Shown here piece by piece: positions 1,401 through 32,918 of a DNA stretch of 64,000 nucleotides. The stretch comes from a virus. The stretch covers positions 39,596 through 103,595 of IMG/VR virus record IMGVR_UViG_3300017971_000013; one strand, 5' to 3'. A model generated the notes under the pieces. It did not search any database. It saw nothing but the letters and a program-made list of their open reading frames with translations, and was not told where the DNA came from. The position numbers and the translations under genes are program-made. Positions within the stretch are counted from its first letter, which is position 1. Every line of letters starts with the position of its first letter.

Positions 1401-1630
1401 AGTATAAATATATTGATGTTGAGCGCTTTCCAGCGTTGCCCGATGGGGCAACCGATATTTCTATCACTCTCTATAACTTTGAAAGGAAAGTTATTGGCGG
1501 AGCGGCTAGATTGGTGTGTGGTATGCTGACAGCCTGGTTCGACACTGGGTTGGGCGTTGTCACACTGTCTGGTCGGGAGGCACATGAGTTTATTGATGAT
1601 TGCTTGGAGGTGGCTAACAGTGAGCCCTGA
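1397..1630 (+). CDS. Hypothetical protein
   Basis: ATGA-coupled ORF in an operon. Confidence 0.65.
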   Translation: MKYKYIDVERFPALPDGATDISITLYNFERKVIGGAARLVCGMLTAWFDTGLGVVTLSGREAHEFIDDCLEVANSEP

Positions 1631-1991
1631 AACAGTGTATTCTCTGCTTGCTCAGGTGTTCGAGATCCATTACGGCTTTGAGGAGGCCGTGGTTAAGAGA
1701 TACTCGGATGTCACGGGCGAAGCAAAGTTTGATGTGGAGGAGGCGCCCGAGCATTCCTACTTTCCATACCGAAACAGATACTCTATCACATACATAAGTC
1801 CCTATGAAATACCTGGAGTGTACATATCGACGGTAGGGTTTGTGTTCGGGTATCTTGTTTCTGTCTTTCGTAAGGAAAACCAGTGGGTGGTGATGGATAA
1901 GCAAATGCTTAATCCTACTTACTACCATTTTTCTACGGCGATCGCGGCGGCACAGAAGGCCATAGAAGTGGCTTTAGAAAGGAAGATATGA
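1620..1991 (+). CDS. Hypothetical protein
   Basis: GTG start at 1620 with GGAGG RBS; coupled to neighbours. Confidence 0.65.
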   Translation: MSPETVYSLLAQVFEIHYGFEEAVVKRYSDVTGEAKFDVEEAPEHSYFPYRNRYSITYISPYEIPGVYISTVGFVFGYLVSVFRKENQWVVMDKQMLNPTYYHFSTAIAAAQKAIEVALERKI

Positions 1992-2434
1992 GCATCGAGG
2001 AATATAAAGACGAAGTCTCCAAGGTTCTGATTAAAGTGAATTATGGTCGTGCTGAGGCTTATTTCCAATGGCAGGATTCAGTTGGTAACTGTGATGCGAT
2101 TTTGATGACTCTCTTTGAGAGTGACTCAGAGGAGATGTTCCTTGAGGAGAAACTCCGGTGGGAGTTCAATGATGACGGCACCTTACTTCGTCTGTTTGTT
2201 GGCACAGAAGAAGTTCTCAGAGACAGAGCCCCTTATTTGAAGTTCGTATTGTATGGTGGATCGAAGCCGCGTGATTTGATCTTAGATGATTTCACACGAA
2301 TCTTTGAATATGGGCTAGAGTATCACTTGGAGCCGATTTTTCTAGAATGTGGTTGTGGTTGCGAGATGCGACAGTATGGTTTCTGTCATTTCGACGTGGA
2401 GCGTGCTACAGCGGGAACTAACAGAGTAAGCTGA
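1988..2434 (+). CDS. Hypothetical protein with C-terminal Cys cluster
   Basis: ATGA-coupled ORF; CGCGC...CH motif. Confidence 0.65.
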   Translation: MSIEEYKDEVSKVLIKVNYGRAEAYFQWQDSVGNCDAILMTLFESDSEEMFLEEKLRWEFNDDGTLLRLFVGTEEVLRDRAPYLKFVLYGGSKPRDLILDDFTRIFEYGLEYHLEPIFLECGCGCEMRQYGFCHFDVERATAGTNRVS

Positions 2435-2511
2435 GCACGAGCAAGGAATCGTCGGGAGTTCGATAAAGCTCATCAATGGCTGGAAGTTCTTTGTTCACCT
2501 TTTCAACAGAC

Positions 2512-2540
2512 TTGACTGTCGAATCGGTGAGAGGTAGACT
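2512..2540 (+). promoter_or_regulatory. Sigma70-type promoter
   Basis: TTGACT (2512-2517) - 17 nt - TAGACT (2535-2540). Confidence 0.6.
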
Positions 2541-2546
2541 TGGCTC

Positions 2547-2656
2547 GTGACCTGTAAGGTTTAGCTCCGCCTTACAGGCTGCCAATACTTTACCTCCAAA
2601 GAAGACTTGGCATAAGTTAAGCCCCTTGCATTGATTTGCAGGGGGCTTTTCTTTTT
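2547..2656 (+). ncRNA. Candidate ~110-nt sRNA presenting an anti-Shine-Dalgarno ACCUCC loop
   Basis: Promoter upstream; hairpin CCTGTAAGG/CCTTACAGG; hairpin TGCCAA..CTTT-ACCTCC-AAAG..TTGGCA; terminator 2619-2656; no ORF. Confidence 0.55.
2619..2656 (+). terminator. Rho-independent terminator
   Basis: AAGCCCCTTGCA/TGCAGGGGGCTT stem followed by TTCTTTTT. Confidence 0.8.
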
Positions 2657-2727
2657 GCCTTCAAAAGTGTTAATATTGCCACTTAGCAACGTTTAGGTGT
2701 CAATCTTATTACTTTTGGAGCGTAATA

Positions 2728-4830
2728 ATGACTAGGTACTTTTTTGCAGGAGGGGACTCTAAGCCCGCAATTAAGTGTATGCTCGCATGTGACGTCAAAA
2801 ATATTCTGTTTAGCTTCTTCTATATACAGAAAAAGCGGCAGAAGAATTTTGATGCCCTTGTAAGTCAGCTGACAGAACTCAAGGAAAAAGGTGGTTATAC
2901 TTTTATCTTAGATTCTGGTGGCTTTACTTATAAAGATGTAGCGGGCCGAGGGTTTCAAACTGTTAGAAGTGAAGCAGGCGCTGTACGGACAAAGAAGCTA
3001 GATCCATATGCGTATTTAGAGGAATACACCAAATTTCTTATACAATATGGACACTTGTTTGATGTCTGTGCAGAGTTTGAACCGGACGAAGTGTTCGGCG
3101 GCGTAGATATTGTAGATGAGAACAGAGAGAAGATGCTAGCCACCTTCGAGAAGCACGGTGTAGAGGTTAACCTCATGCCTGTGTTTGATTCTTTCATAAG
3201 GGATCTAGATACGTGGGAAGAGTGGTGTGAAGATTCTAGATACAAGCATCTTGGTTTTGTGGGAAATGATATACGTCTTGCTTCTCGTCTTGTAAATAAG
3301 GCGCATAGACACGGCAAAAAAGTACATGGTTTCGCGCAGACTAAGATTGAGGATCTTCAAAGAGCTAAGTTTGATACTGTGGATTCTACAGGATGGATTT
3401 CTGGGCAGAAATATGGAGAGGTGTTCATATTTCAACGTGGTAAATGGACCAGACTAAACGCTACCCAAAAGAATAAGCGCAAGCTTTATAAGAACTATTT
3501 CAAGGCAATTGGGATAGATTGGGACCTCATCAATAGAGATGATCCCAATGAGTTACTTAAAGCCTCATGTTTGTCCTGGAAGCGTTTGTTTGATCACTTT
3601 GAGGCTAGGTCTATATTAGAGACAGCCAGTACCACCTCCTTAAAGAGAGCAGCACCAACAAAGCCTGTTCGTGGGGTGTTGATGCAGTTAGCTGAGCTTG
3701 GTGTAGACAAAAAACCACGGGAGCGTAATGTCCCAAAGAAGACAATCAAAGTGGGGGGTAAGATACGGCTTATGTCGACGAAAGCGACAGCGTTCGACGC
3801 ACAGAAGATCATTGCACGGGCGTTGGAGTTGTCGGAACTCCCTGTCGAGGAAGCCTGGGAAAAAGCCTTTGGGCGAGATGAGCAAGAAATAACTGTTGAT
3901 GAGCAAGAGATGAACGCGTTGTTTAAGCCTAAAAGAGCCAGAGGGTTTAGCCCAGAATGGTATGCGTTGCTAGACCAACAACGTCAGGTAGAAGAGGCAT
4001 TAGAAAAAGTCTCGGCAGACAATGAAAAAAGAAATAATAACTGGGACAAGTTCCTGGTGACTGAGCCTCTTATGTCCGAAAACGAGGTAATTTCGCAGGG
4101 TTCCATTTTAGGTGACACTACAGACTACACAAATATTAAACAAATTCAGGGAAATACCGCAGAAATGGCGGATGGATCGCACGTTGCTAAAGACAACGTT
4201 GTTAATAGCAACAGAGAAACTTTAGACAGTCAAAACGACCCTACAAAGCTCACATCATCGACGATTCGTAAAAAATTGTCCGTCCATGCGTGTCATACGT
4301 GCGCAGTTTCTACCGATTGCTCTTATTATCAACCTGGCTACTTGTGTTATTACAAACCAGCATTTCAAACGTTGCAAAGTCGCAATGTTAAAGATGTGAT
4401 GCAGGCGTTAGAGTATATAACGGACAAGAACCTAGAGAGAACGATGCGCGCGTTTTTGATGGAAGAGATACAGATGGGGGGTCAAGTAGACCCTCAAGCA
4501 TCAAATGTGTCTCAGTTAGCTTTCGGGCAGTTAGAGAAGCTAGCTTCACTGAAACATGCAACCAGACCCGAATCTTTCAAGGTAACACTCGAAGGACAAG
4601 GTGAGTCAGCGTCTATCTTGACCCAACTTTTATCGGGCGCAAAACAGCCCGAAGAGCCAAAACAGTTAGAAGCGCAAGAGACTAATATGATAGATGTGAC
4701 ACCTAAGAAGAAAGAGAGAATAGAAGAACGCGCGATAAGAGAGTCAAAACAGCAAGGTAACAGACAAGATGAATATGACATTACTGAATTAGCTACGATA
4801 CAGAAAATGTTTGTTCCTGATCAACAGTAG
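2728..4830 (+). CDS. TGT/DpdA-like transglycosylase (7-deazaguanine insertion) fused to a long C-terminal region with a Cys4 cluster
   Basis: N-terminal ~290 aa has ILDSGGFT, MPVF, KVHGF and FDTVDSTGW motifs typical of phage TGT-superfamily TIM barrels; queC and queD lie in the same window; C-terminus has CxxC-x4-C-x8-C. Confidence 0.65.
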   Translation: MTRYFFAGGDSKPAIKCMLACDVKNILFSFFYIQKKRQKNFDALVSQLTELKEKGGYTFILDSGGFTYKDVAGRGFQTVRSEAGAVRTKKLDPYAYLEEYTKFLIQYGHLFDVCAEFEPDEVFGGVDIVDENREKMLATFEKHGVEVNLMPVFDSFIRDLDTWEEWCEDSRYKHLGFVGNDIRLASRLVNKAHRHGKKVHGFAQTKIEDLQRAKFDTVDSTGWISGQKYGEVFIFQRGKWTRLNATQKNKRKLYKNYFKAIGIDWDLINRDDPNELLKASCLSWKRLFDHFEARSILETASTTSLKRAAPTKPVRGVLMQLAELGVDKKPRERNVPKKTIKVGGKIRLMSTKATAFDAQKIIARALELSELPVEEAWEKAFGRDEQEITVDEQEMNALFKPKRARGFSPEWYALLDQQRQVEEALEKVSADNEKRNNNWDKFLVTEPLMSENEVISQGSILGDTTDYTNIKQIQGNTAEMADGSHVAKDNVVNSNRETLDSQNDPTKLTSSTIRKKLSVHACHTCAVSTDCSYYQPGYLCYYKPAFQTLQSRNVKDVMQALEYITDKNLERTMRAFLMEEIQMGGQVDPQASNVSQLAFGQLEKLASLKHATRPESFKVTLEGQGESASILTQLLSGAKQPEEPKQLEAQETNMIDVTPKKKERIEERAIRESKQQGNRQDEYDITELATIQKMFVPDQQ

Positions 4831-5017: not shown

Positions 5018-5064
5018 GCCTAACATTGCACTATTGCAACATCAAAACAAAAGGAGGAGACAAA

Positions 5065-5286
5065 ATGAACGTCACACTATACGTAACAGAAGAGACAAAG
5101 AAAGACATGGAGTATCTTAAGAAGTATCACAACTTCAAACCAAGTAAACTACTACAGGAGGTAACAACGCTCATCATGGAGAAAACTGAGATCTGTGCTG
5201 GTTGTCCAGCTCGAGCCGATGAAACGTGCGCGGTGTGTAAGTATAACTCTGTGACTATTATAGTAGAGAAACACTTAAAGAGATGA
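5065..5286 (+). CDS. Small DNA-binding protein, ribbon-helix-helix-like N-terminus plus Cys4 C-terminus (putative)
   Basis: AGGAGGAG RBS; MNVTLYVTEETKKDMEYLK...SKLLQE pattern; CAGC...CAVC. Confidence 0.55.
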   Translation: MNVTLYVTEETKKDMEYLKKYHNFKPSKLLQEVTTLIMEKTEICAGCPARADETCAVCKYNSVTIIVEKHLKR

Positions 5287-7235: not shown

Positions 7236-7272
7236 AACGGTTTTAGGGCGGTTCGATTCCGCCCTTAGCGTA
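7228..7272 (+). ncRNA. tRNA-like minihelix (acceptor-like stem + T-arm, no anticodon arm)
   Basis: TACGCTAA/TTAGCGTA stem enclosing GGGCGG-TTCGATT-CCGCCC. Confidence 0.5.
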
Positions 7273-15389: not shown

Positions 15390-16505
15390 ATGAAGGAGAT
15401 ATATTTACGCATATTTACATGTGATTTTTGTTCGTGTATTTTTGGGATAGAATGGTCAAAGACAGATTCCCCTTGTGCAATAATCTGTCCGGTCTGCACA
15501 GAATATGTGTGGGAAGAAAACGACGAGGACGATATGGATCATCTTTCAGATACACAAGTTGAAGAAGCTGTAAGTTATAATAAAAAACAAAGTTATTCAC
15601 CTAGTACTTGGATGGAAATTCAAGAAATGGTAGTTTGTCACGCTGATGGACTCGTTGGGCCAGATACTGTTCAGCACGTAGCATTTTGGCAATATAGACA
15701 AGATATAGGATTGACTATAGATGGAAAAGTAGGGCCAGCTACCCTAAAAGAAATGGGTATTGAATACATTCCTGATGATGAATATGACATTAGAAACATG
15801 GTTAAAACCTACCCACATAGGTGTTTTGGTATAGATGTTTCTGACTATCAAGGTGATCTTTCTGCGGAAGATTTTCAACTTATGAAAGATGCGGGAGTAG
15901 TCTTTGTCATTTTTAAGGCTACTGAAGGTAGAACTTGGAAATCAAAATATTTTCATAACAATATTGTGAGAGCAAAAGGTGTCGGTCTTTTTGTATCTGC
16001 TTATCATTTGACGCGTTTGACAGACTCTGCCGTTACTGAGGTGATGAACCCAGAAGGAGGAGCAGAGAACTTTGTTAATTTTATAGGTGATAAATGGTCA
16101 CTGCTTGATTTTACTTGTTGGAACGATTTGGAATACAAACAGGTAGAACAGATGGTTAATTTGTGCAGCGCAGCTGAAGCAAATGATTGGTTGATGCGGT
16201 GGATGGTACGATTCAAAGAAATGGTTAGCCATAAAATTGAATTTTACCTGTCTCATAGAACAGCAAAGCTGTTTAGTTCGTATTGTGAACCTTTTAATAC
16301 AACAGAAGGGTGGTGGGCGTATTACGATTCTGCTACTTGGGGAGATCCACCAAAAATGTATCCTCCTAATTGGAATAAATGGATGTTTAGGCAGATAACA
16401 GGCTCGGGTAAGGTTCCTGGCATTCATGGGGATTGTGACATAAACTATTTTGCCGGAGATACACAAGACTTTTTGGACTTTATAACCAATGAGCAAAGAG
16501 GATAG
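15390..16505 (+). CDS. Endolysin: N-terminal zinc ribbon + peptidoglycan-binding domain + GH25 muramidase
   Basis: DGLVGPDT and DGKVGPATL (PG_binding_1); GIDVSDYQG, KATEG, DLE and VPGIHGDCDINYF (GH25). Confidence 0.85.
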   Translation: MKEIYLRIFTCDFCSCIFGIEWSKTDSPCAIICPVCTEYVWEENDEDDMDHLSDTQVEEAVSYNKKQSYSPSTWMEIQEMVVCHADGLVGPDTVQHVAFWQYRQDIGLTIDGKVGPATLKEMGIEYIPDDEYDIRNMVKTYPHRCFGIDVSDYQGDLSAEDFQLMKDAGVVFVIFKATEGRTWKSKYFHNNIVRAKGVGLFVSAYHLTRLTDSAVTEVMNPEGGAENFVNFIGDKWSLLDFTCWNDLEYKQVEQMVNLCSAAEANDWLMRWMVRFKEMVSHKIEFYLSHRTAKLFSSYCEPFNTTEGWWAYYDSATWGDPPKMYPPNWNKWMFRQITGSGKVPGIHGDCDINYFAGDTQDFLDFITNEQRG

Positions 16506-16761
16506 TTCTATGTTCACAGCCCTGTTGGTGTTGTTTGTTGATATAGAGCGTCAAGTGCCTAAAGTATCTCTTTCTATGTTAACTAACGATTTTATTAACA
16601 GGGTTAAATCTTATATCGAATATGAACTTAGGGAATTAATGAAATTCTTTGGGTTCATATTTCGATATGAGCTACGGGTCTTACCGTGTGTTAGCTTATG
16701 TGATGTGGTTTTAAGCATACCAGATGAAGACATAGCTAAAATGAAGGAGTATAAATGGTAG
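16489..16761 (+). CDS. Hypothetical protein
   Basis: Operon packing. Confidence 0.55.
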   Translation: MSKEDSSMFTALLVLFVDIERQVPKVSLSMLTNDFINRVKSYIEYELRELMKFFGFIFRYELRVLPCVSLCDVVLSIPDEDIAKMKEYKW

Positions 16762-17477
16762 ACGTTATTGTAGAGAGACCTCATGTGGAAATAATAAGCC
16801 CACCAATGATTTTTAAATATAATAAAATGATGGTGGAGATTTGCGCGAGAAACTGTTATAAATCAGAAGAAGGCAGACTCTTCAAACATTCAGATAGATT
16901 CTTAAAGAGCGTAATTCAGACAAGAGGACACGTTTCTGTAGCGGATCATGCGCACATTACTGTGCGTTTCTTTATTGATAGAGCTTGCTCTCACCAACTT
17001 GTTCGTCATAGAATTGCTGCGTATTCTCAAGAATCACAACGTTATTGTAACTACGGAAAGAATAACGCGTTGAGGGTTGTTGGCGAGCCAGACATATTCA
17101 ATGAAGGCGATGATCTCAAACAACTTTGGATAGAAAAGAGAAGAGAAGACTACGAAGAGTACTTGTTGTATCTTAAAAGAGGGGTAAAGCCAGAGGCAGC
17201 GAGAACTTGTTTACCTAACGCTACAAAAACAGAGATATGTTCTACTTTTGATTTGACTGAGTGGCGCCATATCTTTAAAATTCGAGCACTGAGTTCTGCT
17301 GCACAATGGCAGATTCGAGCTGTGATGCAGAGGACTTTGATTTATTTTGATACTCTGTTACCAGCTTTTTTTAGCGATCAAATGAGACAGCTTAGAGAAT
17401 CAAAAGACGGATTGGCTGTATTTGATAGGGCAGATCTGAAGAAATTTCCGTGGGAACAACATGGCATAGAATGGTAA
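16755..17477 (+). CDS. thyX: Flavin-dependent thymidylate synthase
   Basis: GHVSVADH; HQLVRHRIAAYSQESQRY (RHR-x7-S motif); EAAR..LPN. Confidence 0.95.
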   Translation: MVDVIVERPHVEIISPPMIFKYNKMMVEICARNCYKSEEGRLFKHSDRFLKSVIQTRGHVSVADHAHITVRFFIDRACSHQLVRHRIAAYSQESQRYCNYGKNNALRVVGEPDIFNEGDDLKQLWIEKRREDYEEYLLYLKRGVKPEAARTCLPNATKTEICSTFDLTEWRHIFKIRALSSAAQWQIRAVMQRTLIYFDTLLPAFFSDQMRQLRESKDGLAVFDRADLKKFPWEQHGIEW

Positions 17478-23646: not shown

Positions 23647-25505
23647 TGCCTTTCTCTGACGAGGAAATTCGCGTAAAATCTGATAAACTTTCTTTGCAGA
23701 TTTCAGGAGGCGCGGATCAGGCTCCAGGAAAAAAGTTCTGGTATAATGAGGAGCATCCTTGGTCTCCTATTGTTGTACCTGATAACATTTGGTCTGATTT
23801 TGCTACAATACCTCCAGCTACAACGCCAGCTCAGGCAGATGCAAATGCTATAGCTAATCCCACTATTATTGAAAGGTTGGAAACCAGGTTAACTAACAAT
23901 CCAACTAGCAATAATAGGCAATATGAAGCTAGACAAACTTATGGTGATCGGACCAGTGATATTTATGTCAACTGGATCCAGCCTGCTCTCGTTAGAGATA
24001 GCGGTGCGCCCTCAAACGGATACATCATCCGACTGTATAATGGTGATCCCTCTGGAGGCGGTGTAGAGTTACCAACTACTTGGAATGGTGGTCCAGATGG
24101 TGCCCCCTCTTGGGAATGGAATTACTCTACTGGTGTTTTAAAGGTTTCTACTGATCAATCTGCAAACTATGGTGCTATAGATGCTGGCGCCGGTTTATGG
24201 GTTCAGGGTTTCAGATATATCGGGCCTACAGGAGGAGGTGCTTCCACTGTTGCAAGCACACCTAAAAGACTTGGCGCAATTGATATAGATGGCGCAGTTA
24301 ACCTAGTAAATACAGATTATGTTTTGTACACTGTTCCAGCAGGGTCTTATGCATTATCTGCCTTTGTTGTTGTGTGTAACAGAAACGCGGCGTTGGCAAC
24401 AACTGTAAGAATTGCACATTCTGTGGCTGGGCCACTAAACAATGAAGATTACATATTTTATGATGTAGATGTGCTAGCTTACGAATCTAAATTCATTTCT
24501 ATACCAGGCATGTCTGCTGGTGATTATATTACAGTAAGAGCAGATACTTCTGATACGGATTTTATGATTCGTGGTTTTGAAGATGTTGGAACTGCGCCTG
24601 TTCAACGCATAGCAGCGCTTGCCACAGATATAGGAACCAGAAATACAGATCTCCAAGCCTACTTAAGTACACAGGATTCTAGTGATGTTAAATACTACAT
24701 TTGTAATCATAATGGTGCTTTAGCTACGCGCGTGCGCGTGGCGCATATAGATGATGTTGTTGTTGGTAGTTTACTACCAGAGGACTACGAACTATATGAG
24801 GAAGAATTAGTAGCCACTGAATCTAGAGGATATTGTACTGGTCTTCAAATGTCTGCTAATCAGACTTTGATGTTTCGCGCAGATGAAGCAGATGTGAACA
24901 TTGTTGTTTATTGTTCATTTGGAGGAACGGGTGGAGGCGGTGGAGGAGGTGTTTCTTTATGGCAAGAAATAGGTACCGACTTAAGTCCTCTAACTCCAGG
25001 TAACAATGTGACTGTTCCTGGCGCAAGGCTGACTCTAGGTGATGATGTAGATCCTCAATTCTTTGAATCCATCACACAAGCTTCAGGCCAAGCTACCCAG
25101 GTTGGTGACAGCCAATATGAACGTGTTGTCTGTTATGGTGAGACTTTTGATGCGGCCTGGACAGTTCTCTATCCAGGCGGCAATGCCGCTAACAATTTGA
25201 CTTTAGTTGCAGGTTCATCTTATACTTGCAGGGTTCTTGTAACTGGAGTTCAGTACGGCGGCATTTTAGGGTCTCAGTATGATACTTGGGCATATGAATT
25301 GATAGGAAACATTGTGCTGGCCGGAGGTGTCACTACAATGCATTCTTATATCTCAAATACAATATTTGAAGCAGATAATACCTTTGATGTGCAATTAGTT
25401 GCAGATGACATCAATGATGCAATTCAGGTCCAGGTTAGAGGCGGTGTTAGTAAGTCCGTGCGATGGACCGCCGTTGTTGAACTTATAAATAGTTATGGTG
25501 GCTAG
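23646..25505 (+). CDS. Multi-domain tail-fibre/adhesin-like protein
   Basis: Gly-rich linkers; two tandem beta-sandwich repeats (VCNRNAALATTVRIAH / ICNHNGALATRVRVAH); C-terminal VRWTAVVE domain. Confidence 0.7.
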   Translation: MPFSDEEIRVKSDKLSLQISGGADQAPGKKFWYNEEHPWSPIVVPDNIWSDFATIPPATTPAQADANAIANPTIIERLETRLTNNPTSNNRQYEARQTYGDRTSDIYVNWIQPALVRDSGAPSNGYIIRLYNGDPSGGGVELPTTWNGGPDGAPSWEWNYSTGVLKVSTDQSANYGAIDAGAGLWVQGFRYIGPTGGGASTVASTPKRLGAIDIDGAVNLVNTDYVLYTVPAGSYALSAFVVVCNRNAALATTVRIAHSVAGPLNNEDYIFYDVDVLAYESKFISIPGMSAGDYITVRADTSDTDFMIRGFEDVGTAPVQRIAALATDIGTRNTDLQAYLSTQDSSDVKYYICNHNGALATRVRVAHIDDVVVGSLLPEDYELYEEELVATESRGYCTGLQMSANQTLMFRADEADVNIVVYCSFGGTGGGGGGGVSLWQEIGTDLSPLTPGNNVTVPGARLTLGDDVDPQFFESITQASGQATQVGDSQYERVVCYGETFDAAWTVLYPGGNAANNLTLVAGSSYTCRVLVTGVQYGGILGSQYDTWAYELIGNIVLAGGVTTMHSYISNTIFEADNTFDVQLVADDINDAIQVQVRGGVSKSVRWTAVVELINSYGG

Positions 25506-26745
25506 TATGCAAAACAATGTCCAAGGAAAGGTCGTTGGCTTGGGCGGTAATTTGCCGAGCCACGTAAGACTGGAACCTTCTTTTCATGATCATTGTAACT
25601 GCAGGGGTTGGACTCCTGCAGCCCTTGGGTCTGGAAATAGTTTCCTTAATAGGTTTTGGAATAGGGCAAACACTGATTGGAACAATCATTGGAAATATAA
25701 ATGGTGGGAATTCTTTCCTCAAGGAGGTACTGTAGATCCATTTGGTCCAAGAAGGTTTGATACCACTGTTGAACTTGCTAATTACCTAGCTGATAACCTA
25801 CCGATGCTTGCTGGCAATTATGATGATGGTGTGAATGTGCGGTGTTATGATGCCGTAGATTATGCTGATTCATTTCCGCGCATAAGAATTGTTCGCAATT
25901 CTATTATAGGCTCGGTTAGAGGCAGGCGTAGATGGTTAGTAGGCTTTAGCTCCGAAACTTGTGGTATTTCTTCGGGCTTTAATGCCCCTAACTATTATGC
26001 AGGTGGCTTTCCTGGTAACACGGGTCGTTTGTTTGTTCAGAAATATACAGGCTTTTTACCAGGGACAAATAACGATGACGTTGTGTGGGCTACGAGGAAG
26101 AAACGCACTATGTGGTCGTTCCCTAAGGTAGGTAATCTGATTCAAGACTTACCCCCTGGAGCAAGAAGGGCTGCGTGGAATACAAACACTTTAAATTGGG
26201 TGACTCCAGCTCCTCAGCTTAGTTACGCATTTCAAAATCCTTTTCTGTGGTATGAAAACTACTGGGGCGGGGTTTTGGCTGTTGGTTATCCTAGTGACTT
26301 AGGTCAATCTTACAGAGAGGCTGTTCTTAATGGACCAGCAGCACTTGTGTTTCCTGTAGTCTCTGGGGATCATGTCGCTTTTGCTGTTTATCCAATGGGT
26401 TTTGATACTTTTTACACGGATAGACTAGGTACAGACGAAGAGCTTATCACAAAAGCAACCTTTAAAAGACAATCAACTCCAAGATACAAAGTTCTAACAT
26501 CTTCAAGCGTCGATCGTGATGTTGAAATGTTCCACACCGGAGACGGTGGAGGAAATCATTTTATGCAGTCAACGGATTGGCCAAACTCAAGCAATGATGG
26601 TATACGTGTACCTCATAAGGTGTATGTAGCTAAACGTAACACTGTGACAGGTGTGCGTTCAAAATGGGTTAAATTAGGAATCTTTCATCATCGTGTTCCT
26701 CATTCATCCCATAGGTTTGATCCAGCCTATAAATGGACAGGATAA
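25495..26745 (+). CDS. Unknown protein, paralogue A (followed by 3x30-nt hairpin array A)
   Basis: 416-aa W/R-rich ORF; aligns by eye with the C-terminal ~400 aa of 27275-28987; alternative start 25507. Confidence 0.8.
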   Translation: MVASMQNNVQGKVVGLGGNLPSHVRLEPSFHDHCNCRGWTPAALGSGNSFLNRFWNRANTDWNNHWKYKWWEFFPQGGTVDPFGPRRFDTTVELANYLADNLPMLAGNYDDGVNVRCYDAVDYADSFPRIRIVRNSIIGSVRGRRRWLVGFSSETCGISSGFNAPNYYAGGFPGNTGRLFVQKYTGFLPGTNNDDVVWATRKKRTMWSFPKVGNLIQDLPPGARRAAWNTNTLNWVTPAPQLSYAFQNPFLWYENYWGGVLAVGYPSDLGQSYREAVLNGPAALVFPVVSGDHVAFAVYPMGFDTFYTDRLGTDEELITKATFKRQSTPRYKVLTSSSVDRDVEMFHTGDGGGNHFMQSTDWPNSSNDGIRVPHKVYVAKRNTVTGVRSKWVKLGIFHHRVPHSSHRFDPAYKWTG

Positions 26746-26788
26746 GATTCAGATGTTGCCAACTGGCAATGTTTGATTCCCCGTGAGA

Positions 26789-26878
26789 GGGGCTGCTATG
26801 TAGTAATGCAGCCCCAACGGGGTCACTTTGTAGTAATGTGGCCCCAAAGGGGCTGCCTTGTAGTAGTGCAGCCCCAAT
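26789..26878 (+). repeat. Array A: three tandem 30-nt hairpin repeats (candidate structured RNA)
   Basis: GGGGCTGC-TATGTAGTAAT-GCAGCCCC-AAC / GGGGTCAC-TTTGTAGTAAT-GTGGCCCC-AAA / GGGGCTGC-CTTGTAGTAGT-GCAGCCCC-AAT; compensatory stem changes. Confidence 0.9.
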
Positions 26879-26927
26879 GAGATGCCTCTAAAGGAGAGCC
26901 AGCCAGGTTCGATTCCTGGGCATCTCA
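26879..26927 (+). ncRNA. Anticodon-less tRNA-like element
   Basis: 7-bp acceptor stem GAGATGC/GCATCTC + A; D-like arm CTCT-AAAGG-AGAG; T-arm CCAGG-TTCGATT-CCTGG; only CCAG where the anticodon arm would be. Confidence 0.7.
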
Positions 26928-26954
26928 CTTTTGTGTTTCACTAAGAGGAATGTA

Positions 26955-27278
26955 ATGAAAGAATTACAGGTTAGAGGCACTACTGGTCAAAGACACTCTG
27001 GTGGGCAGCAAAACACTACGTCTGTATCCACCTTGACTGTGGCAGATTATGATTTAACTGATATGCGTTACGGGGGAGAATTCCTCCTTACGCCAGACGG
27101 TTCTTCTACTTTGTTAGAGTTGCTTCAGGCCGAAGCTCCTTGGGATTTGATGGAGACTTATACACTGGAGGAGCCTCCAGAAGATAATCAGTTAAGTTTA
27201 GCTGTGGTACCTTCGGCCGGTGCCACTGTTCGTGTTTTGTTGACTGCACGAATTGATTGTCAGGATCCTGTAACATGA
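26955..27278 (+). CDS. Small protein, paralogue of 37992-38348 (fibre-associated/chaperone candidate)
   Basis: GAGGA RBS; GGEFLLTPDGSSTLLELLQ...VPSAGATVRV...DCQD vs GGDVVLDADGTKNILELIQ...VPVSGSKVVV...TCEE. Confidence 0.7.
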   Translation: MKELQVRGTTGQRHSGGQQNTTSVSTLTVADYDLTDMRYGGEFLLTPDGSSTLLELLQAEAPWDLMETYTLEEPPEDNQLSLAVVPSAGATVRVLLTARIDCQDPVT

Positions 27279-28987
27279 TTGAAAGCACAAAACCTAATAT
27301 AGATTTTGCGGCAAGAGACACAGCTTTTTTGACTATGTCAGCGCCGCAGAATGCTAATCTAGCTGTCGGAGATCATGTTGAATTTAACTTAGTTGAAGGA
27401 AACATCCCGTTATCTGTAGGAGCCGGACAGGCTAACGGTGTTTTGACTTTAACTAACAGCAAAAAATATAAACTAGAGGCCAATGTCTCTTGTGCGTTCG
27501 GCGCAACAAATGATTCGTGCTCATTTGTCTGGTATGACACAACAAACAACACTGAGATAGGGAAAAGGTCTGATTGTTTCTCTGTTTCTGGTTCAGCTAC
27601 AGAGAGTTCTGTCAGCACCGTGCGCGCGGTGGTAACGCCAGGGGCAGACATAAACGTAGAGCTTAGAATTATCGCTGTCAGCGGTACTGTTACACTCATT
27701 TCTAACTCCTTTGCAAATGGGTGGGTAGAGAGCTTAGAGGCGTATATAAATGTAGTGCCAACTTTTGATGTTCATGTTCCCACTATAGAATATGACACGT
27801 TCACTGTTGGCATACACGACTCTACAAACTGGTCTGGTTCTGCTTTTGATTCTTTGGCGGATCGTCAAGCGGCAGATATAAACAGAAATTTCTCTAACTA
27901 CACACAATGTTTTTGGCGCTTGTATGAAAGAGAGGTAGGCACTAACCTTTTGGTTAATTACTGGGAAGGTTTGCAATTTGCCTCTATTGCCGCTCTTTAC
28001 ACCTTCATAAGAAATAACTGTGTAGAAAGTGGGACGGCTCCAGGGACACCAGCCAATGATATCATCGCTACTGCTTATGATATCATTGATGACACGGTAC
28101 AGCGCGTTAACCGTATTTATGGCCTGAATACTTTTCTTGCTATATTGAAAGGTCGGCGCAGGTATTTGTCATCCAACTTTGATGAATGTGTTTTAGACGA
28201 AAATCTGTGTTCGTGGGGACAGCTTGGTAACTGGATTGATGATCTGAATGCCAACGCGCCTGGGTGGCTTAATCCACTTTCGTCTTGGGCTCCAGGTTCT
28301 AATGAAGAGAATATTGTTTGGTTTTCAAGGAACATAAAGAAACTTTATGGGCTTCCAAACATCTCTACTGTGTTTATGAATCTGACTGCTCTAACAAATA
28401 GACGTGTTTGGGATTGGGGTGCGTCTGCTGTGGTCGCAGCCCCTCTTGGTGGTTATCAGGGCACAGGGCCGAGCGGAGAGCCTAAGATTTATTGTTCGTT
28501 GGATATGCCTACTCAAACGTGGACGTTTTTTGACACTACGTTGAGAGATCATTACGTACAGCAGTTTAACGGAGATAAATCTATTATAGTGCTTTATCAA
28601 CTGTCCAGTACTGCCGATCCGAACAAAAGAGCTGTCTTAGCAAAGCCTCTTGGTATAGATAGGGTTTCGATTCCTTGGTTTGATTCTTCTGTGTATGACT
28701 TATACGCTCTGTATAATCGTAAGAATCAGACACACAATATTCGCGGTCCTTTGACTAGTACCTTCGAAGATGTTATAGCTAATAAGAAGTGGGTGTTGAA
28801 AGATCAGTGGATGCATCCTTCTAAGTTCGATACTAAAGCTTCTGCAAGAATGGTTGGTACTCAAGAGTACACAACTAGATTCTTTTTGCGGCATAAATCT
28901 ACAGGGCGTATCTCAAAGCCTAGCAGCGCCAGAATAGTATGTGCCCAGAGGCACAGAGACGCTATGTTTAAATTTGAGGTACGTTAA
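27275..28987 (+). CDS. Unknown protein, paralogue B: N-terminal C1q/BclA-like beta domain + domain shared with 25495-26745
   Basis: ATGA-coupled start 27275; N-terminal VEFN..GNI...GVLTL...YKLEANVS jelly-roll pattern; followed by hairpin array B. Confidence 0.8.
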   Translation: MIESTKPNIDFAARDTAFLTMSAPQNANLAVGDHVEFNLVEGNIPLSVGAGQANGVLTLTNSKKYKLEANVSCAFGATNDSCSFVWYDTTNNTEIGKRSDCFSVSGSATESSVSTVRAVVTPGADINVELRIIAVSGTVTLISNSFANGWVESLEAYINVVPTFDVHVPTIEYDTFTVGIHDSTNWSGSAFDSLADRQAADINRNFSNYTQCFWRLYEREVGTNLLVNYWEGLQFASIAALYTFIRNNCVESGTAPGTPANDIIATAYDIIDDTVQRVNRIYGLNTFLAILKGRRRYLSSNFDECVLDENLCSWGQLGNWIDDLNANAPGWLNPLSSWAPGSNEENIVWFSRNIKKLYGLPNISTVFMNLTALTNRRVWDWGASAVVAAPLGGYQGTGPSGEPKIYCSLDMPTQTWTFFDTTLRDHYVQQFNGDKSIIVLYQLSSTADPNKRAVLAKPLGIDRVSIPWFDSSVYDLYALYNRKNQTHNIRGPLTSTFEDVIANKKWVLKDQWMHPSKFDTKASARMVGTQEYTTRFFLRHKSTGRISKPSSARIVCAQRHRDAMFKFEVR

Positions 28988-28999
28988 CAGTGTTTTGGC

Positions 29000-29089
29000 G
29001 GTTCGCTCGATTAAAGACGAACTGCGTTAGGTTCGCTCGATTAAAGACGAACCGTATTTGGCCCGCTCGATTAAAGACGGGCCACATAT
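29000..29089 (+). repeat. Array B: three tandem 30-nt hairpin repeats (candidate structured RNA)
   Basis: GGTTCG-CTCGATTAAAGA-CGAACT / GGTTCG-CTCGATTAAAGA-CGAACC / GGCCCG-CTCGATTAAAGA-CGGGCC; invariant 12-nt loop; double compensatory change TT/AA to CC/GG. Confidence 0.9.
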
Positions 29090-29092
29090 TCC

Positions 29093-29146
29093 AATAATTC
29101 CCCTCTTGTGTAACTTTCTCCTACATGAGAGGGGAATTATTATTTC
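29093..29146 (+). terminator. Long inverted repeat closing array B (terminator/processing hairpin)
   Basis: AATAATTCCCCTCT (29093-29106) / AGAGGGGAATTATT (29128-29141). Confidence 0.65.
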
Positions 29147-29219
29147 CTGCCCTTCTATCTGCTTGCTATTCCTATCCCTTGTAGATTCTTCTAGCTTTAT
29201 AAAAAAATTGAGGGTTAAT

Positions 29220-32009
29220 ATGTCTAACAACACTGGAAGTATAACTTCAAGCGAGTTATTTGGTGCTCCTGCTTCTGGCTCTTCATCTTCCTCTATTTGG
29301 GATGCTGATGCGGATACAGGCGTTGATGTTGAGGCAACACCGGATAATGATACTATCTTTGGGTATACAAATGATGGCGCGGGAAATCCCTTAGCTCGGT
29401 TTTCCATCTCTCAGCCAGGCGAAGCATCCTTTGGACAGCTTGATGGTCGGGTGGGGACCGAGTTTTTTAATGTCTTGGGTGGGGATACTTTAGGCTTAAG
29501 CGCTGGTTTGCTGTTAGATGCTGTGGATGGTGCAGGCGGCGGATACGATGCTTTTTTAGCCATTGATAGTGATTTAGCTGGTGGTGGTAGCTCCGCAGCC
29601 GTGATCTTAAGAAACAATGGCGGAAACTCTGTGGCTTGGACAGCGCCATCTGTCGCTCCAGGTTCCGACTTGTTTTTTGCTCTACCAAATACGCAAGGCG
29701 CAAATGGCCAGGTATTAGCTAGTAATGGTGTTGACAGCACTTATTGGACTACTGTTGCCACTTCAGGTATTTGGGACACTGATGGTGATACAGGTATAGA
29801 TTGTGAACGTACTCCAGACGTAGACGAGATTTCTTTTTATACAGGAGATCCGTCTGTCGAACGAATGCGTTTGGGTGGTAACGGTTTACGTATTGAGCCT
29901 GGTTCTGTGTCTGGGACTGCTACAGAGATTTTAGAGATACAAGGTAGTTCAATTGGCGGAGATATTCGTGCCAAGGCAACAAATATTTTAGGTCTGCCAA
30001 CTCAACCAGGCACAGCTGGTTTAGATATGGATGTTTCTGGGCTGGTTGGTTCTATTTACATGTCTCGTAATGATGGCTTGTGGCTAGAATCTGATGGGAC
30101 AGCCTTAGGACGTCAGGCGCCTATTCATATGTCTGTAGATTCTACAGAGATTGTGACTGTTAATTTTGATTCCGGTTCTGTTCCTGGTTATTTGGGCTTG
30201 AGTCAATATGGTGCTGGTGCAGGTGAGAAGTCAGAGCTAAGGTTTTTTCTGGGAGATGTTAGCTCTAATTATGTTGGTTTTAAGGCGCCGGATGCAATAC
30301 CTACTTCTGAGATATGGACATTACCAGCGGCGGATGGAACACCTGGTCAGGTTTTATCTACCAATGGCGCAAATGTTTTATCTTGGGTTGGAGGCGCAGC
30401 AGATTCAGATTGGTCTGGAGCAGCTACGGGTATGTTATATCCGACCAACATTACAGATAATGTAGCTATAGGAAACGCGACGCCAACATATACAAATCGT
30501 GGTTTGTGGGTAGAAAATGCTGGAGCCTATGGAGGTTCAGCACAGTTAAGAGGAAGCGCAGCTAGGCTCGAACTTTTTTCTTCTGGTAATGCTGCTGGTG
30601 CCAGAGCCATGGATATTGTTGGCTATTCTGACGCTTATCATATACGGCTGTTAGATGATGGCTTTAGCACACAATCTGCTGGCATTTTGTTGTCGGCATC
30701 ATCTTTTATTTTAAATGACAACTATGCTGATGTAGATACTCAGATTTTTGGAAACTCTGGTTTGGTTCCTCGTGTGCATGCTGATGGCGCGACAAAGACA
30801 GTTGGTATAAATACTGCTACTCCTGGATCTCAGCTACATGTGACAGACGATACTGCTTGTGGTGTTTTGGTCTCTGCTTTTGGAAATGGAGCAGGAGATT
30901 ATCCTTTTTGGTTTATGTATCGTGGCAGGAATGTTGAGGCCGCGCCCAATTCTGTGCTGACAGGAGATATTCTTGGCAGCGCCGATTTTAGAGCTTTTGA
31001 CGGTACAGGAGCAGGAGACGCTGGTTATATTGCTATGTACGCCAATGAGGATTGGTCTACTGGTAATACTGGATCCAGGTTAGTTTTAGCTACTACAGAA
31101 GATGCCAATGCTACTTCTGTTGAGAGAGTTCAGATAGATGATGATGGTGTTGTTCAGGTTTTAACTAATTATATAGATGTGCATCCGAAAGGAACGGCAG
31201 CTGGTGATGGTGGGACGGTACGTTTTAGAGAATTAGCAGCAAGCGGCACTGATTATGTAGGGCTTAGTGGGCCAGATGCAGCAACAGCAACACAAGACTA
31301 TAAACTACCGCAGAACTATCCTTCTGTGGCAGGAGATGCTCTCACGTGTGATGGTTCAGGAAATATGGGGTGGGCAGCAAGAGACTTGCGATGGTCTGCA
31401 ACTGCTGCTGGAACCTGGGCATCTACTAGCACATTTACTGTCACTGATAACGCCACCAACCAATCAATCTTTGCAACTGGGCGTCCAATCAGATTTAGAC
31501 AAGCTGCAGGTACTTGGCGTTATGCAATTATTACTGACTACACAACAGGGACAATAACTGTTGCTGGTCATCCGATTACAAATGCTGCCGAAATGACAGA
31601 AATGGAATGGGGTAACTTTGATCGTGTTCAGACCCTTTCTTTTGCTATTAATGGCGAATTTGCGGATGGCGCAAGCACTTCTCTGATTGAAGATGATTTA
31701 TTTACTTTCTTTAAATGGACGATGGCTAAGGCTTATTGTGTACTCATTAGCCATCGTGTGACAGACGTGGATACAGGCGCATCGCAGCCGCGTGTTAACT
31801 TAAGAGTGAACGGTCAGCCTGTTTCAACTTCTAATACTAACGCAGGACGAGATGTTTCTACTTCGTGGGTAGATACTGTTGTAGACATCGCTGTAGCTAA
31901 TTATGATATTAACTGGGGAGAAGCTATAGAGATTTCTACTGATGCTAACGGTACAAATAATGATGCCAGAAGTCTGTCACTACAGGCCACCTTTGTATTT
32001 GAGGATTAA
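29220..32009 (+). CDS. Long tail fibre protein
   Basis: Start moved to ATG 29220; repeated WD.D.DTG.D.E.TPD.D.I.FY and LP..G..GQVL..NG...W fibre motifs; VGINTATP. Confidence 0.85.
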   Translation: MSNNTGSITSSELFGAPASGSSSSSIWDADADTGVDVEATPDNDTIFGYTNDGAGNPLARFSISQPGEASFGQLDGRVGTEFFNVLGGDTLGLSAGLLLDAVDGAGGGYDAFLAIDSDLAGGGSSAAVILRNNGGNSVAWTAPSVAPGSDLFFALPNTQGANGQVLASNGVDSTYWTTVATSGIWDTDGDTGIDCERTPDVDEISFYTGDPSVERMRLGGNGLRIEPGSVSGTATEILEIQGSSIGGDIRAKATNILGLPTQPGTAGLDMDVSGLVGSIYMSRNDGLWLESDGTALGRQAPIHMSVDSTEIVTVNFDSGSVPGYLGLSQYGAGAGEKSELRFFLGDVSSNYVGFKAPDAIPTSEIWTLPAADGTPGQVLSTNGANVLSWVGGAADSDWSGAATGMLYPTNITDNVAIGNATPTYTNRGLWVENAGAYGGSAQLRGSAARLELFSSGNAAGARAMDIVGYSDAYHIRLLDDGFSTQSAGILLSASSFILNDNYADVDTQIFGNSGLVPRVHADGATKTVGINTATPGSQLHVTDDTACGVLVSAFGNGAGDYPFWFMYRGRNVEAAPNSVLTGDILGSADFRAFDGTGAGDAGYIAMYANEDWSTGNTGSRLVLATTEDANATSVERVQIDDDGVVQVLTNYIDVHPKGTAAGDGGTVRFRELAASGTDYVGLSGPDAATATQDYKLPQNYPSVAGDALTCDGSGNMGWAARDLRWSATAAGTWASTSTFTVTDNATNQSIFATGRPIRFRQAAGTWRYAIITDYTTGTITVAGHPITNAAEMTEMEWGNFDRVQTLSFAINGEFADGASTSLIEDDLFTFFKWTMAKAYCVLISHRVTDVDTGASQPRVNLRVNGQPVSTSNTNAGRDVSTSWVDTVVDIAVANYDINWGEAIEISTDANGTNNDARSLSLQATFVFED

Positions 32010-32012
32010 AAT

Positions 32013-32918
32013 ATGATTATTTTGAATACAAGGGAATACAATGGCTATAATATGGATGATCAGGACACTATGTTGGCAACAGGTGATGAAACTATCACCG
32101 GAGGTTCTGGCACAGTATCTACCGGCACAGTAACTACTGGAGGAGGAGCAACCACATTAATTGATTCTGCAGCTACTTTTGTGACTGATGGTGTGGCTGT
32201 TGATGATGTGGTTATAGTGCCTACTGATAACACAGCAATAGCAAAGGTCACTTCTGTGGATAGTGAAACACAGCTGACCACAGAAATTTTAAGCGGTGGA
32301 TCTAGTTACAATGTAGGTGATGGTTACTCTGTTGAGAATTGTGATTCTTTTACAGAAAGCAGCCCCAACGCTAGAACTGGGCTTATTTTACCAAATGCAT
32401 CGATAACTACTTCAGGTAAGATAGGGGATGCTTTTAATTTCGACGGAAACTTACAAAGCATTGTAACTTTTGGTAATCTTCCAGCTTTTGAATTAGGTAG
32501 CAACGACTTTACTATGGATGCGTGGGTGTATCCTACTGTAAGCTTTTTTGGTGCCATTATAGCTAAATACAGGGTCAGCATAGGTTGGTTATTCAGGGTG
32601 AATGGGACGTCGGTTGATTTTTACACCGGAACAGGTGGTATTCTTCTAGGTTCAGCTGGAGGTACCGTACCTTTAAATCAATGGACGCATGTTGCCGTTG
32701 TGCGTAAAGGGAATCAATGGCGTCTTTATGTTAACGGTGGTATAAGAGATTCCTTGAATTCTAGCCATGTAGTACCTACTTCTAATGAACAACTCTGGCT
32801 GGGAAGACAGAATTATCAAAGCCGTGTTTTGACAGGACGTATAGACCATGCCCGCTTGAGCATAGGAATGGTGCGATGGGAACGTCCTTTCGAACCTCCT
32901 GCACGTGTGTTTTACTAA
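32013..32918 (+). CDS. LamG/concanavalin A-like lectin domain virion protein
   Basis: DFTMDAWVYP, NQWTHVAVVR, LYVNG and GRIDHARLS. Confidence 0.85.
   Translation: MIILNTREYNGYNMDDQDTMLATGDETITGGSGTVSTGTVTTGGGATTLIDSAATFVTDGVAVDDVVIVPTDNTAIAKVTSVDSETQLTTEILSGGSSYNVGDGYSVENCDSFTESSPNARTGLILPNASITTSGKIGDAFNFDGNLQSIVTFGNLPAFELGSNDFTMDAWVYPTVSFFGAIIAKYRVSIGWLFRVNGTSVDFYTGTGGILLGSAGGTVPLNQWTHVAVVRKGNQWRLYVNGGIRDSLNSSHVVPTSNEQLWLGRQNYQSRVLTGRIDHARLSIGMVRWERPFEPPARVFY

Follow-up and report, generated by a model that had tools for sequence, protein, structure and literature searches.

The IMG/VR record from which this DNA was taken is 103,595 bp in length with 123-bp terminal repeats, and the window analysed here (64,000 nucleotides in all) is its right-hand 64 kb. 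Judged by its sheath and portal genes the source phage (G000) is a myovirus, and the + strand carries nearly all of the long ORFs of the window. Two of its genes, A and B, belong to the same uncharacterized tail-protein family, and each is followed by a tandem array of three small hairpins. The features at the locus, in window coordinates, are as follows.

25495-26745, + strand: gene A, 416 aa, subfamily A of the family, a distant paralogue of gene B
26789-26875, + strand: array A, three hairpins with an 8-bp stem, an 11-nt loop and a 3-nt linker, period 30 nt
26879-26927, + strand: tRNA-like mini element with a perfect T-arm-like hairpin, adjoining array A on its 3' side
27275-28987, + strand: gene B, 570 aa, stop codon 28985-28987, uncharacterized tail-protein family
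29000-29023, + strand: hairpin 1 of array B, stem 29000-29005/29018-29023 with a G·U outermost pair, loop 29006-29017
29030-29053, + strand: hairpin 2 of array B, stem 29030-29035/29048-29053, loop 29036-29047, the same as loop 1
29060-29083, + strand: hairpin 3 of array B, stem 29060-29065/29078-29083, loop 29066-29077, again identical
29093-29141, + strand: fourth hairpin, 20-bp stem and 9-nt loop, stem G+C-rich in its upper part, 3' side and tail U-rich
29220-32009, + strand: downstream gene, 929 aa, ATG at 29220 with a GAGGG box 7 nt upstream

The paralogy between genes A and B is weak (BLASTP E = 4e-7). A counterpart of gene A is found at 9227-10414 of L122, and in the protein tree gene A clusters with the gene at 4478-5662 of L166. 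The 929-aa product of the downstream gene matched no Pfam or PHROG family, and the name 'fibre' given to it in the first-pass annotation remains unverified. Comparison of 26500-32100 with GenBank phages revealed no DNA similarity.

Array B (29000-29083) is built from three 30-nt units, in which the stem has 6 bp, the 12-nt loop is the same every time and the 6-nt linkers diverge. Its first hairpin begins 12 nt past the stop codon of gene B. Tandem Repeats Finder reports the same region (29000-29079, period 30, 2.7 copies). The 64-kb window contains three exact copies of the loop, CTCGATTAAAGA, which start at 29006, 29036 and 29066 on the + strand, and no others; this agrees with the first-pass annotation, which had noted the three identical loops. 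The stems of hairpins 1-3 are GGTTCG/CGAACT (with one G·U pair), GGTTCG/CGAACC and GGCCCG/CGGGCC; relative to stems 1 and 2, two adjacent pairs of stem 3 are altered on both sides. The compensatory switch that had been claimed is therefore real, and the G·U pair of stem 1 can be added to it. The minimum-energy RNA fold of the region consists of exactly the three array B hairpins and the long fourth hairpin (z = -7.7 relative to 200 shuffles).

The core of the fourth hairpin is a perfect 14-bp inverted repeat (29093-29106/29128-29141). Such a repeat had been described as closing the array; it is present and extends to a 20-bp stem, but it ends at 29141 rather than at 29146, and the last bases of the range originally assigned to the structure (28998-29146) are the U-rich tail beyond the repeat. 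Terminator-like matches were located at 29114-29136, inside the hairpin, which is probably a terminator or a processing site that ends the gene B transcript.

From TTG 29058 an open frame extends across hairpin 3 and on into the downstream gene, and the 30-nt period is a multiple of three, as would suit a region that is simply translated or that arose by a recent neutral duplication. This explanation can for practical purposes be dismissed. TTG 29058 sits in the linker preceding hairpin 3 without a ribosome-binding-type box, whereas ATG 29220 has a box of its own, and the gene B frame stops again eight codons past its stop codon. Moreover, relatives also show periods of 31-33 and 38 nt, and the stems undergo compensatory changes while the loops stay fixed. 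The earlier proposal that the region is non-coding and that the next gene starts at 29220 is thus well supported, although not proven.

Array A follows the same plan as array B. The shared 30-nt period had already been remarked upon, and it can now be added that the genes in front are distant paralogues, each with its own array. Copy 2 of array A contains compensatory changes and one U·G pair, and the 11-nt-loop type of this array also occurs behind the subfamily-A gene of L166. The tRNA-like element occupies the place that the long hairpin has after array B; neither ARAGORN nor Rfam gave a call for it. A second T-arm-like hairpin of a similar kind is present at 7245-7265 of the window. Between the gene A stop codon and array A there is a separate 12-bp hairpin (26748-26777), which accounts for the unusually long gap of 43 nt. 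Array A is followed by a small ORF (26931-27278; ~100-115 aa), a homologue of which (5799-6104 in L166) lies directly after the subfamily-A array, so that the order gene, array, small ORF is conserved for subfamily A.

A family profile made from five proteins retrieved 356 representatives among 1.84 billion proteins, mostly of 400-500 aa. Neither Pfam nor PHROG has a model for the family domain. A tail or receptor-binding function is probable. Six of 50 members have tail-fibre-type N-termini (PHROG matches and Pfam Mtd_N), and Mtd_N is absent from gene B itself. The AF2 model of gene B has pLDDT values above 90 for residues 170-570. Fold searches with the family domain returned no clear known relative, only weak Ig/FN3-like pieces (the ESM Atlas gave nothing usable), and no RNA-binding domain could be recognized in the fold. 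For a virion protein, the domain has an unusually basic composition, its median pI being 8.9 compared with a median of 5.3 for the ORFs of the source phage. For the last 45 residues the family median pI is 11.0 with a net charge of +7, and the corresponding values for gene B are 11.3 and +7.

A word-indexed protein search with gene B identified only a fragment as a close relative, and neither a single-protein search of IMG/VR nor the first metagenome scan gave a match. An alignment-based scan led to a 212-kb phage contig (G001, locus L122) with a gene B homologue of 40% identity. Later metagenome scans returned G001 again and nothing further, genome-contig scans for the family were empty or returned only the L170 contig again, and a scan for the divergent subfamily gave nothing. 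No family member was found in cultured phages using tblastn with four members. The source phage and G001 have only six BLAST-detectable proteins in common, three of them in the tail module and one of them ThyX, and there is no recognizable RNA-binding protein among the six. The ThyX thymidylate synthase is encoded at 16755-17477 of the window, and a GH25 lysozyme with a peptidoglycan-binding domain at 15390-16505.

A further scan, however, brought the number of contigs up by nine. To establish how widely the hairpins occur, 18 family genes were identified with the family HMM on 11 contigs from nine metagenome datasets, and the DNA behind each was read; the contig of P0002 and three other contigs carrying gene B lay outside this survey. 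As the 11 contigs were found through the protein, any arrays that lack a family gene may have escaped detection. Three hairpins are present behind 16 of the 18 genes, forming 15 clear arrays and one weak array (L174), in which three repeat units with weak bulged stems lie inside a long enclosing stem. The two genes without an array share the 312-kb contig of L169, where they are adjacent, back to back, at 1415-4221 with 11 nt between them. They represent the two deepest family clades, one each (including the gene A lineage), and constitute a natural array-less control.

The first-pass annotation had stated that it would be refuted by a lack of structural conservation in relatives; relatives in fact have the same three-hairpin plan after the homologous gene, with sequences that differ and with compensatory changes. 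Behind the orthologue of gene B in G001, three 30-nt hairpins begin 12 nt past the stop codon, and their loop is quite unlike that of array B. Another array lies 3 kb further downstream on this contig; its loop closely resembles the array B loop, and it too stands behind a family member. In L166 four family genes succeed one another, and every one has a separate array with a distinct loop.

The arrays vary widely in composition (23-67% G+C across the 11 contigs), and all 16 have the orientation of their gene. Stems are mostly of 6 bp (range 5-8), typically with GG at the base and a G-C pair on top. Loops are of 12 nt, except that those of subfamily A have 11 nt, those of one array 13 nt and the third loop of L172 14 nt. 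The linkers between repeat units are of 3-14 nt, the period is 30-33 nt (38 nt at the second junction of L175) and the modal gap between stop codon and array is 12 nt. We therefore define the motif as three direct hairpins of 5-8 bp with 11-13-nt loops (one 14-nt exception) and a period of 30-33 nt (38 nt once), with one loop sequence per array, in sense orientation, behind a family gene. Arrays A and B, 13 further clear arrays and the weak one in L174 meet this definition.

Searches by sequence pattern added no further arrays. An exact 14-mer of the loop gave only single chance matches without stems across IMG/VR, and a triple GATTAAAG pattern gave only simple or coding repeats. A generic pattern of three GG...G/C...CC units gave mostly coding repeats; among the matches listed, the pairing filter left only the G001 array, which was already known. 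The - strand of G001 (L134) has, at ~117,888-117,995, a repeat of 36-nt period whose hairpin-like unit keeps an identical 14-nt centre; it is probably a coding repeat. A base-by-base scan of two complete genomes (G000 and G001) identified only four arrays of the type, two in each, all behind family genes. Rfam 15 had no match to the whole window at gathering scores, and at permissive E-values over 26700-29250 and nine related loci only tRNAs reached gathering scores; a weak match over array B on the - strand was attributed to chance (15.7 bits against a gathering score of 176). Our literature search found no description of a comparable element. The element is a previously undescribed RNA motif; in at least ten unrelated uncultured phages it is linked to a single family of tail proteins.

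A distinct and more stable fourth hairpin, often with a tetraloop, follows 12 of the 15 clear arrays. Canonical terminators follow the arrays in L172 and L173 (both A+T-rich) and in L171, where the U-run is carried by the third hairpin itself. The L175 array has no fourth hairpin; the family gene and array there are flanked by tRNA genes (370-441 and 5064-5135). The stable hairpins and terminators indicate that the array forms the final portion of the tail-protein mRNA, ahead of the 3' end. Hairpins 1-3 themselves do not qualify as intrinsic terminators, as they have 12-nt loops and no U-run; only the fourth hairpin and its counterparts fit partly or fully. A factor that bound the three hairpins could in principle decide between termination and read-through, as in attenuation or put/nut-like antitermination, and the immediate proximity of the array to a terminator-like hairpin at most loci and the U-run of the third L171 hairpin are compatible with such control. 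However, no alternative pairing between array and terminator is seen in the folds, L175 lacks the fourth hairpin altogether, and antitermination sites are normally near promoters rather than behind one gene family. We regard control of termination as improbable.

The covariation statistics are based on seven ungapped arrays and on counts per hairpin, because MAFFT failed to align arrays with unequal linkers. In the seven arrays all 126 of 126 cells pair, and 15 of the 18 pairs show changes on both sides. None of 500 shuffles reached the observed values, and with the partner slid only 17-48% of cells pair. The 45 hairpins comprise 270 stem cells, with Watson-Crick pairs in 252, G·U in 16, A·C in one and U·C in one. 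About ten of the 16 G·U wobbles represent independent events. A structure in the antisense strand or in duplex DNA would show A·C as often as G·U. The observed ratio of 16 to one therefore indicates that the element works as sense-strand RNA, with single-stranded DNA of the sense strand being less likely. A covariance model (R1) built from the seven arrays recovered arrays on which it had not been trained at 15-38 bits with filters off, and scored the + strand far higher than the - strand.

These data bear on the possibility that the element acts at the DNA level, with extruded hairpins marking a gene cassette for recombination, retrohoming or integron-like exchange. One array per cassette, at the 3' end and with up to four cassettes in a row, is an arrangement that would suit such a function. 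The target hairpin of the BPP-1 diversity-generating retroelement (DGR), 3' of mtd, likewise depends on stem structure but not stem sequence, and on loop sequence (PMC3240598). The arrays resemble this site in lying directly 3' of a probable receptor-binding gene, in a family of which some members have Mtd_N, but the BPP-1 site is a single DNA hairpin or cruciform that needs a reverse transcriptase and a template repeat. No RVT_1 match was found in G000, G001 or G003, which are estimated to be 100% complete, and a DGR target site was rejected on this basis; a reverse transcriptase ~50 kb from the array was recorded under G004 and under L170/L292. An attC site consists of one long imperfect hairpin per cassette and is used by a tyrosine recombinase (IntI) in the element. 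The three short perfect hairpins found here do not fit that description, and there was no Phage_integrase match in the same three genomes. With neither enzyme in the complete genomes, G·U pairs on the sense strand only, and loops that track the protein tree with no sign of exchange, we consider a DNA-level element very unlikely.

The loops are under stronger constraint than the rest of the array. Within arrays, loops diverge by 8%, stems by 21% (with 23 positions changed on both sides) and linkers by 42%. Across phages the loop consensus is close to CUnrrYUAAAGU and is strongest over the last five positions. The loop type follows the clade of the protein in the family tree, from which we infer that gene and array are inherited together and that the loop evolves slowly.

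It is against this constraint that a purely passive function has to be weighed. Repetitive extragenic palindromes (REP/BIME, for example in malE-malF) are tandem small hairpins in the 3' UTR behind a stop codon and can protect the upstream mRNA, and the arrays are likewise tandem small hairpins in a 3' UTR just past a stop codon. By this analogy they might form a decay barrier against 3' exonucleases or set mRNA levels within the operon. Their position directly past the stop codon and ahead of a terminator or processing hairpin agrees with this, and the tRNA-like element after array A could be a cut site for RNase P/Z. On the other hand, 6-bp stems with 12-nt loops would make a weak barrier, and a stable tetraloop hairpin is already present behind most arrays. 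A barrier also has no need of a loop that is five times more conserved than the linkers, of a cross-phage loop consensus or of exactly three copies. Passive protection of the 3' end is thus unlikely, although it deserves to be kept in mind. Membership in the REP/BIME class itself can be excluded. REPs occur as hundreds of dispersed copies, often in alternating orientation, and are conserved in the stem; here, each complete genome has only two arrays, behind genes of a single family, with three units in direct orientation, conserved loops and free stems.

Alternatively, the array and terminator might be released from the 3' UTR as a trans-acting sRNA with the three loops as seeds for a target mRNA. 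LhrC and RNAIII are multi-loop sRNAs of comparable anatomy, and three identical exposed loops followed by a terminator hairpin match it. However, loop complementarity is not above that of shuffled controls, either within 3 kb of the gene or in the translation start regions of G000 and G001 (host targets were not covered), and on the same comparison antisense pairing of the loops was rejected. An sRNA would moreover leave the separate loop of each paralogue and the strict tie to one gene family unexplained. We consider it quite unlikely.

Several other known systems are similar in part. In ToxIN, ToxI consists of tandem non-coding RNA repeats of ~30-36 nt plus a terminator, three RNA units bind three protein units, and the ToxI repeats lie upstream of a ~170-aa endoribonuclease toxin. 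Array B also comprises direct tandem repeats of similar length followed by a probable terminator, but it stands after a tail-protein gene, its stems covary between copies and the next gene encodes 929 aa. A type III toxin-antitoxin system was excluded, as this product has no Pfam-A match (ToxN models included), and in L166 the genes downstream of arrays are further family paralogues, which also counts against a ToxIN-like reading. CRISPR arrays have identical repeats and spacers of ~30 nt; the 'spacers' here are linkers of 3-14 nt and the repeat stems vary between copies, which rules out a CRISPR array or solitary repeats. In lambda sib, one long hairpin located 3' of a phage gene determines what becomes of the mRNA upstream. 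The hairpin at 29093-29141 is similarly placed 3' of a phage gene and, with its 20 bp, is long enough for an RNase III substrate, but RNase III cleavage has not been shown here, and the arrays differ from sib in having repeated loop-specific units.

A parallel in the proposed mode of recognition is with the MS2 and PP7 coat-protein operators and lambda N-boxB, which are single hairpins with 4-6-nt loops at 5' or internal regulatory sites; lambda N binds boxB through an arginine-rich peptide. As in these systems, the arrays combine a short stem that would be read by shape with a loop that would be read by sequence, and the specificity diverges between related phages. They differ in having three copies, 12-nt loops and a location in the 3' UTR, and no binding protein has been shown for them.

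Any explanation has to account for six features, namely the exactly three units, the constraint on loop sequence with stems held only to pairing, the loops that are identical within an array but paralogue-specific, the loop core shared across phages, the placement just past the stop codon and the strict linkage to the family. The first four are not needed by a decay barrier, a trans-acting sRNA is unsupported by the complementarity data and the DNA-level readings fail as described above, so that docking sites are favoured. Our preferred reading is that array B is one copy of a conserved cis-acting RNA module that serves as a docking platform in the 3' UTR, with the product of the gene itself as a possible partner. 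This reading remains tentative, and we estimate its probability at about 0.45.

The array would be transcribed as the 3' untranslated end of the tail-protein gene, about 12 nt past the stop codon, and would be closed by the terminator-type hairpin. Judging from the pattern of substitutions, the stems would need only to pair, whereas the loop sequence would have to be fixed within an array and differ between paralogues. The three equal hairpins may then present three equivalent, loop-specific docking sites for one partner on the tail-protein mRNA. The position of the array corresponds to the leading edge of a terminating ribosome. Since there is no known RNA binder among the six proteins common to G000 and G001, the candidates are the family protein, a neighbouring tail protein or a host factor. 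The strongly basic C-terminus and the presence of Mtd_N in some members suggest that the leading candidate would be the protein just made from the same mRNA. The array-less family proteins of L169 are equally basic, which shows that basicity is not tied to the array, and the loops could just as well be read by a host factor. Three bound copies might either feed back on the fate of the mRNA or be held together for assembly of a homotrimer. The gene's own product is probably trimeric, but the only ground for this is Mtd_N, which is carried by few members (six of 50, gene B not among them), and the family domain has no clear fold match to strengthen the comparison with an Mtd-like trimer. The proposal starts from what is observed (the structure and its covariation, the sense-strand polarity, the link to the family, the loop constraint and the place before the terminator); protein binding to the loops, the identity of the protein and the effect of binding are inferred only, and no binding has been shown.

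A more specific version is that the 3' UTR is an assembly device, in which each loop captures one new chain by its basic C-terminal part, the three chains are brought into register to form the homotrimer and the paralogue-specific loops prevent close paralogues from mixing. We know of no case of mRNA-templated assembly of a virion protein in phages so far, and we regard this version as speculative and rather unlikely. We group the element with the cis-acting hairpin elements that are read by loop sequence, with its function left open; it would be new in kind if it proved to be an mRNA-templated assembly device.

To our knowledge, hardly any conserved non-coding elements linked to receptor-binding or tail genes of phages have been described, with the exception of DGR target sites. 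The grammar of the present element is unusually strict: the hairpins number exactly three, the 6-bp stem is free in sequence, the 12-nt loop is fixed within the array and every paralogue has a loop of its own. Should the loops dock the product of the gene that they follow, they would provide an example from bacterial viruses of a 3' UTR organizing the assembly or dosage of the protein that it follows, and a source of orthogonal hairpin-protein pairs. Even if the element is merely regulatory or stabilizing, it represents a new class of RNA motif. It also marks an uncharacterized tail-protein family with several hundred representatives, none of them in cultured phages with the queries tried.

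The contig of L170 and L292 (78,677 bp) is present in IMG/VR and also as scaffold QMZE01000001.1 of an Archaeoglobales metagenome-assembled genome from Guaymas Basin, which may reflect either mis-binning or a hint of an archaeal host.
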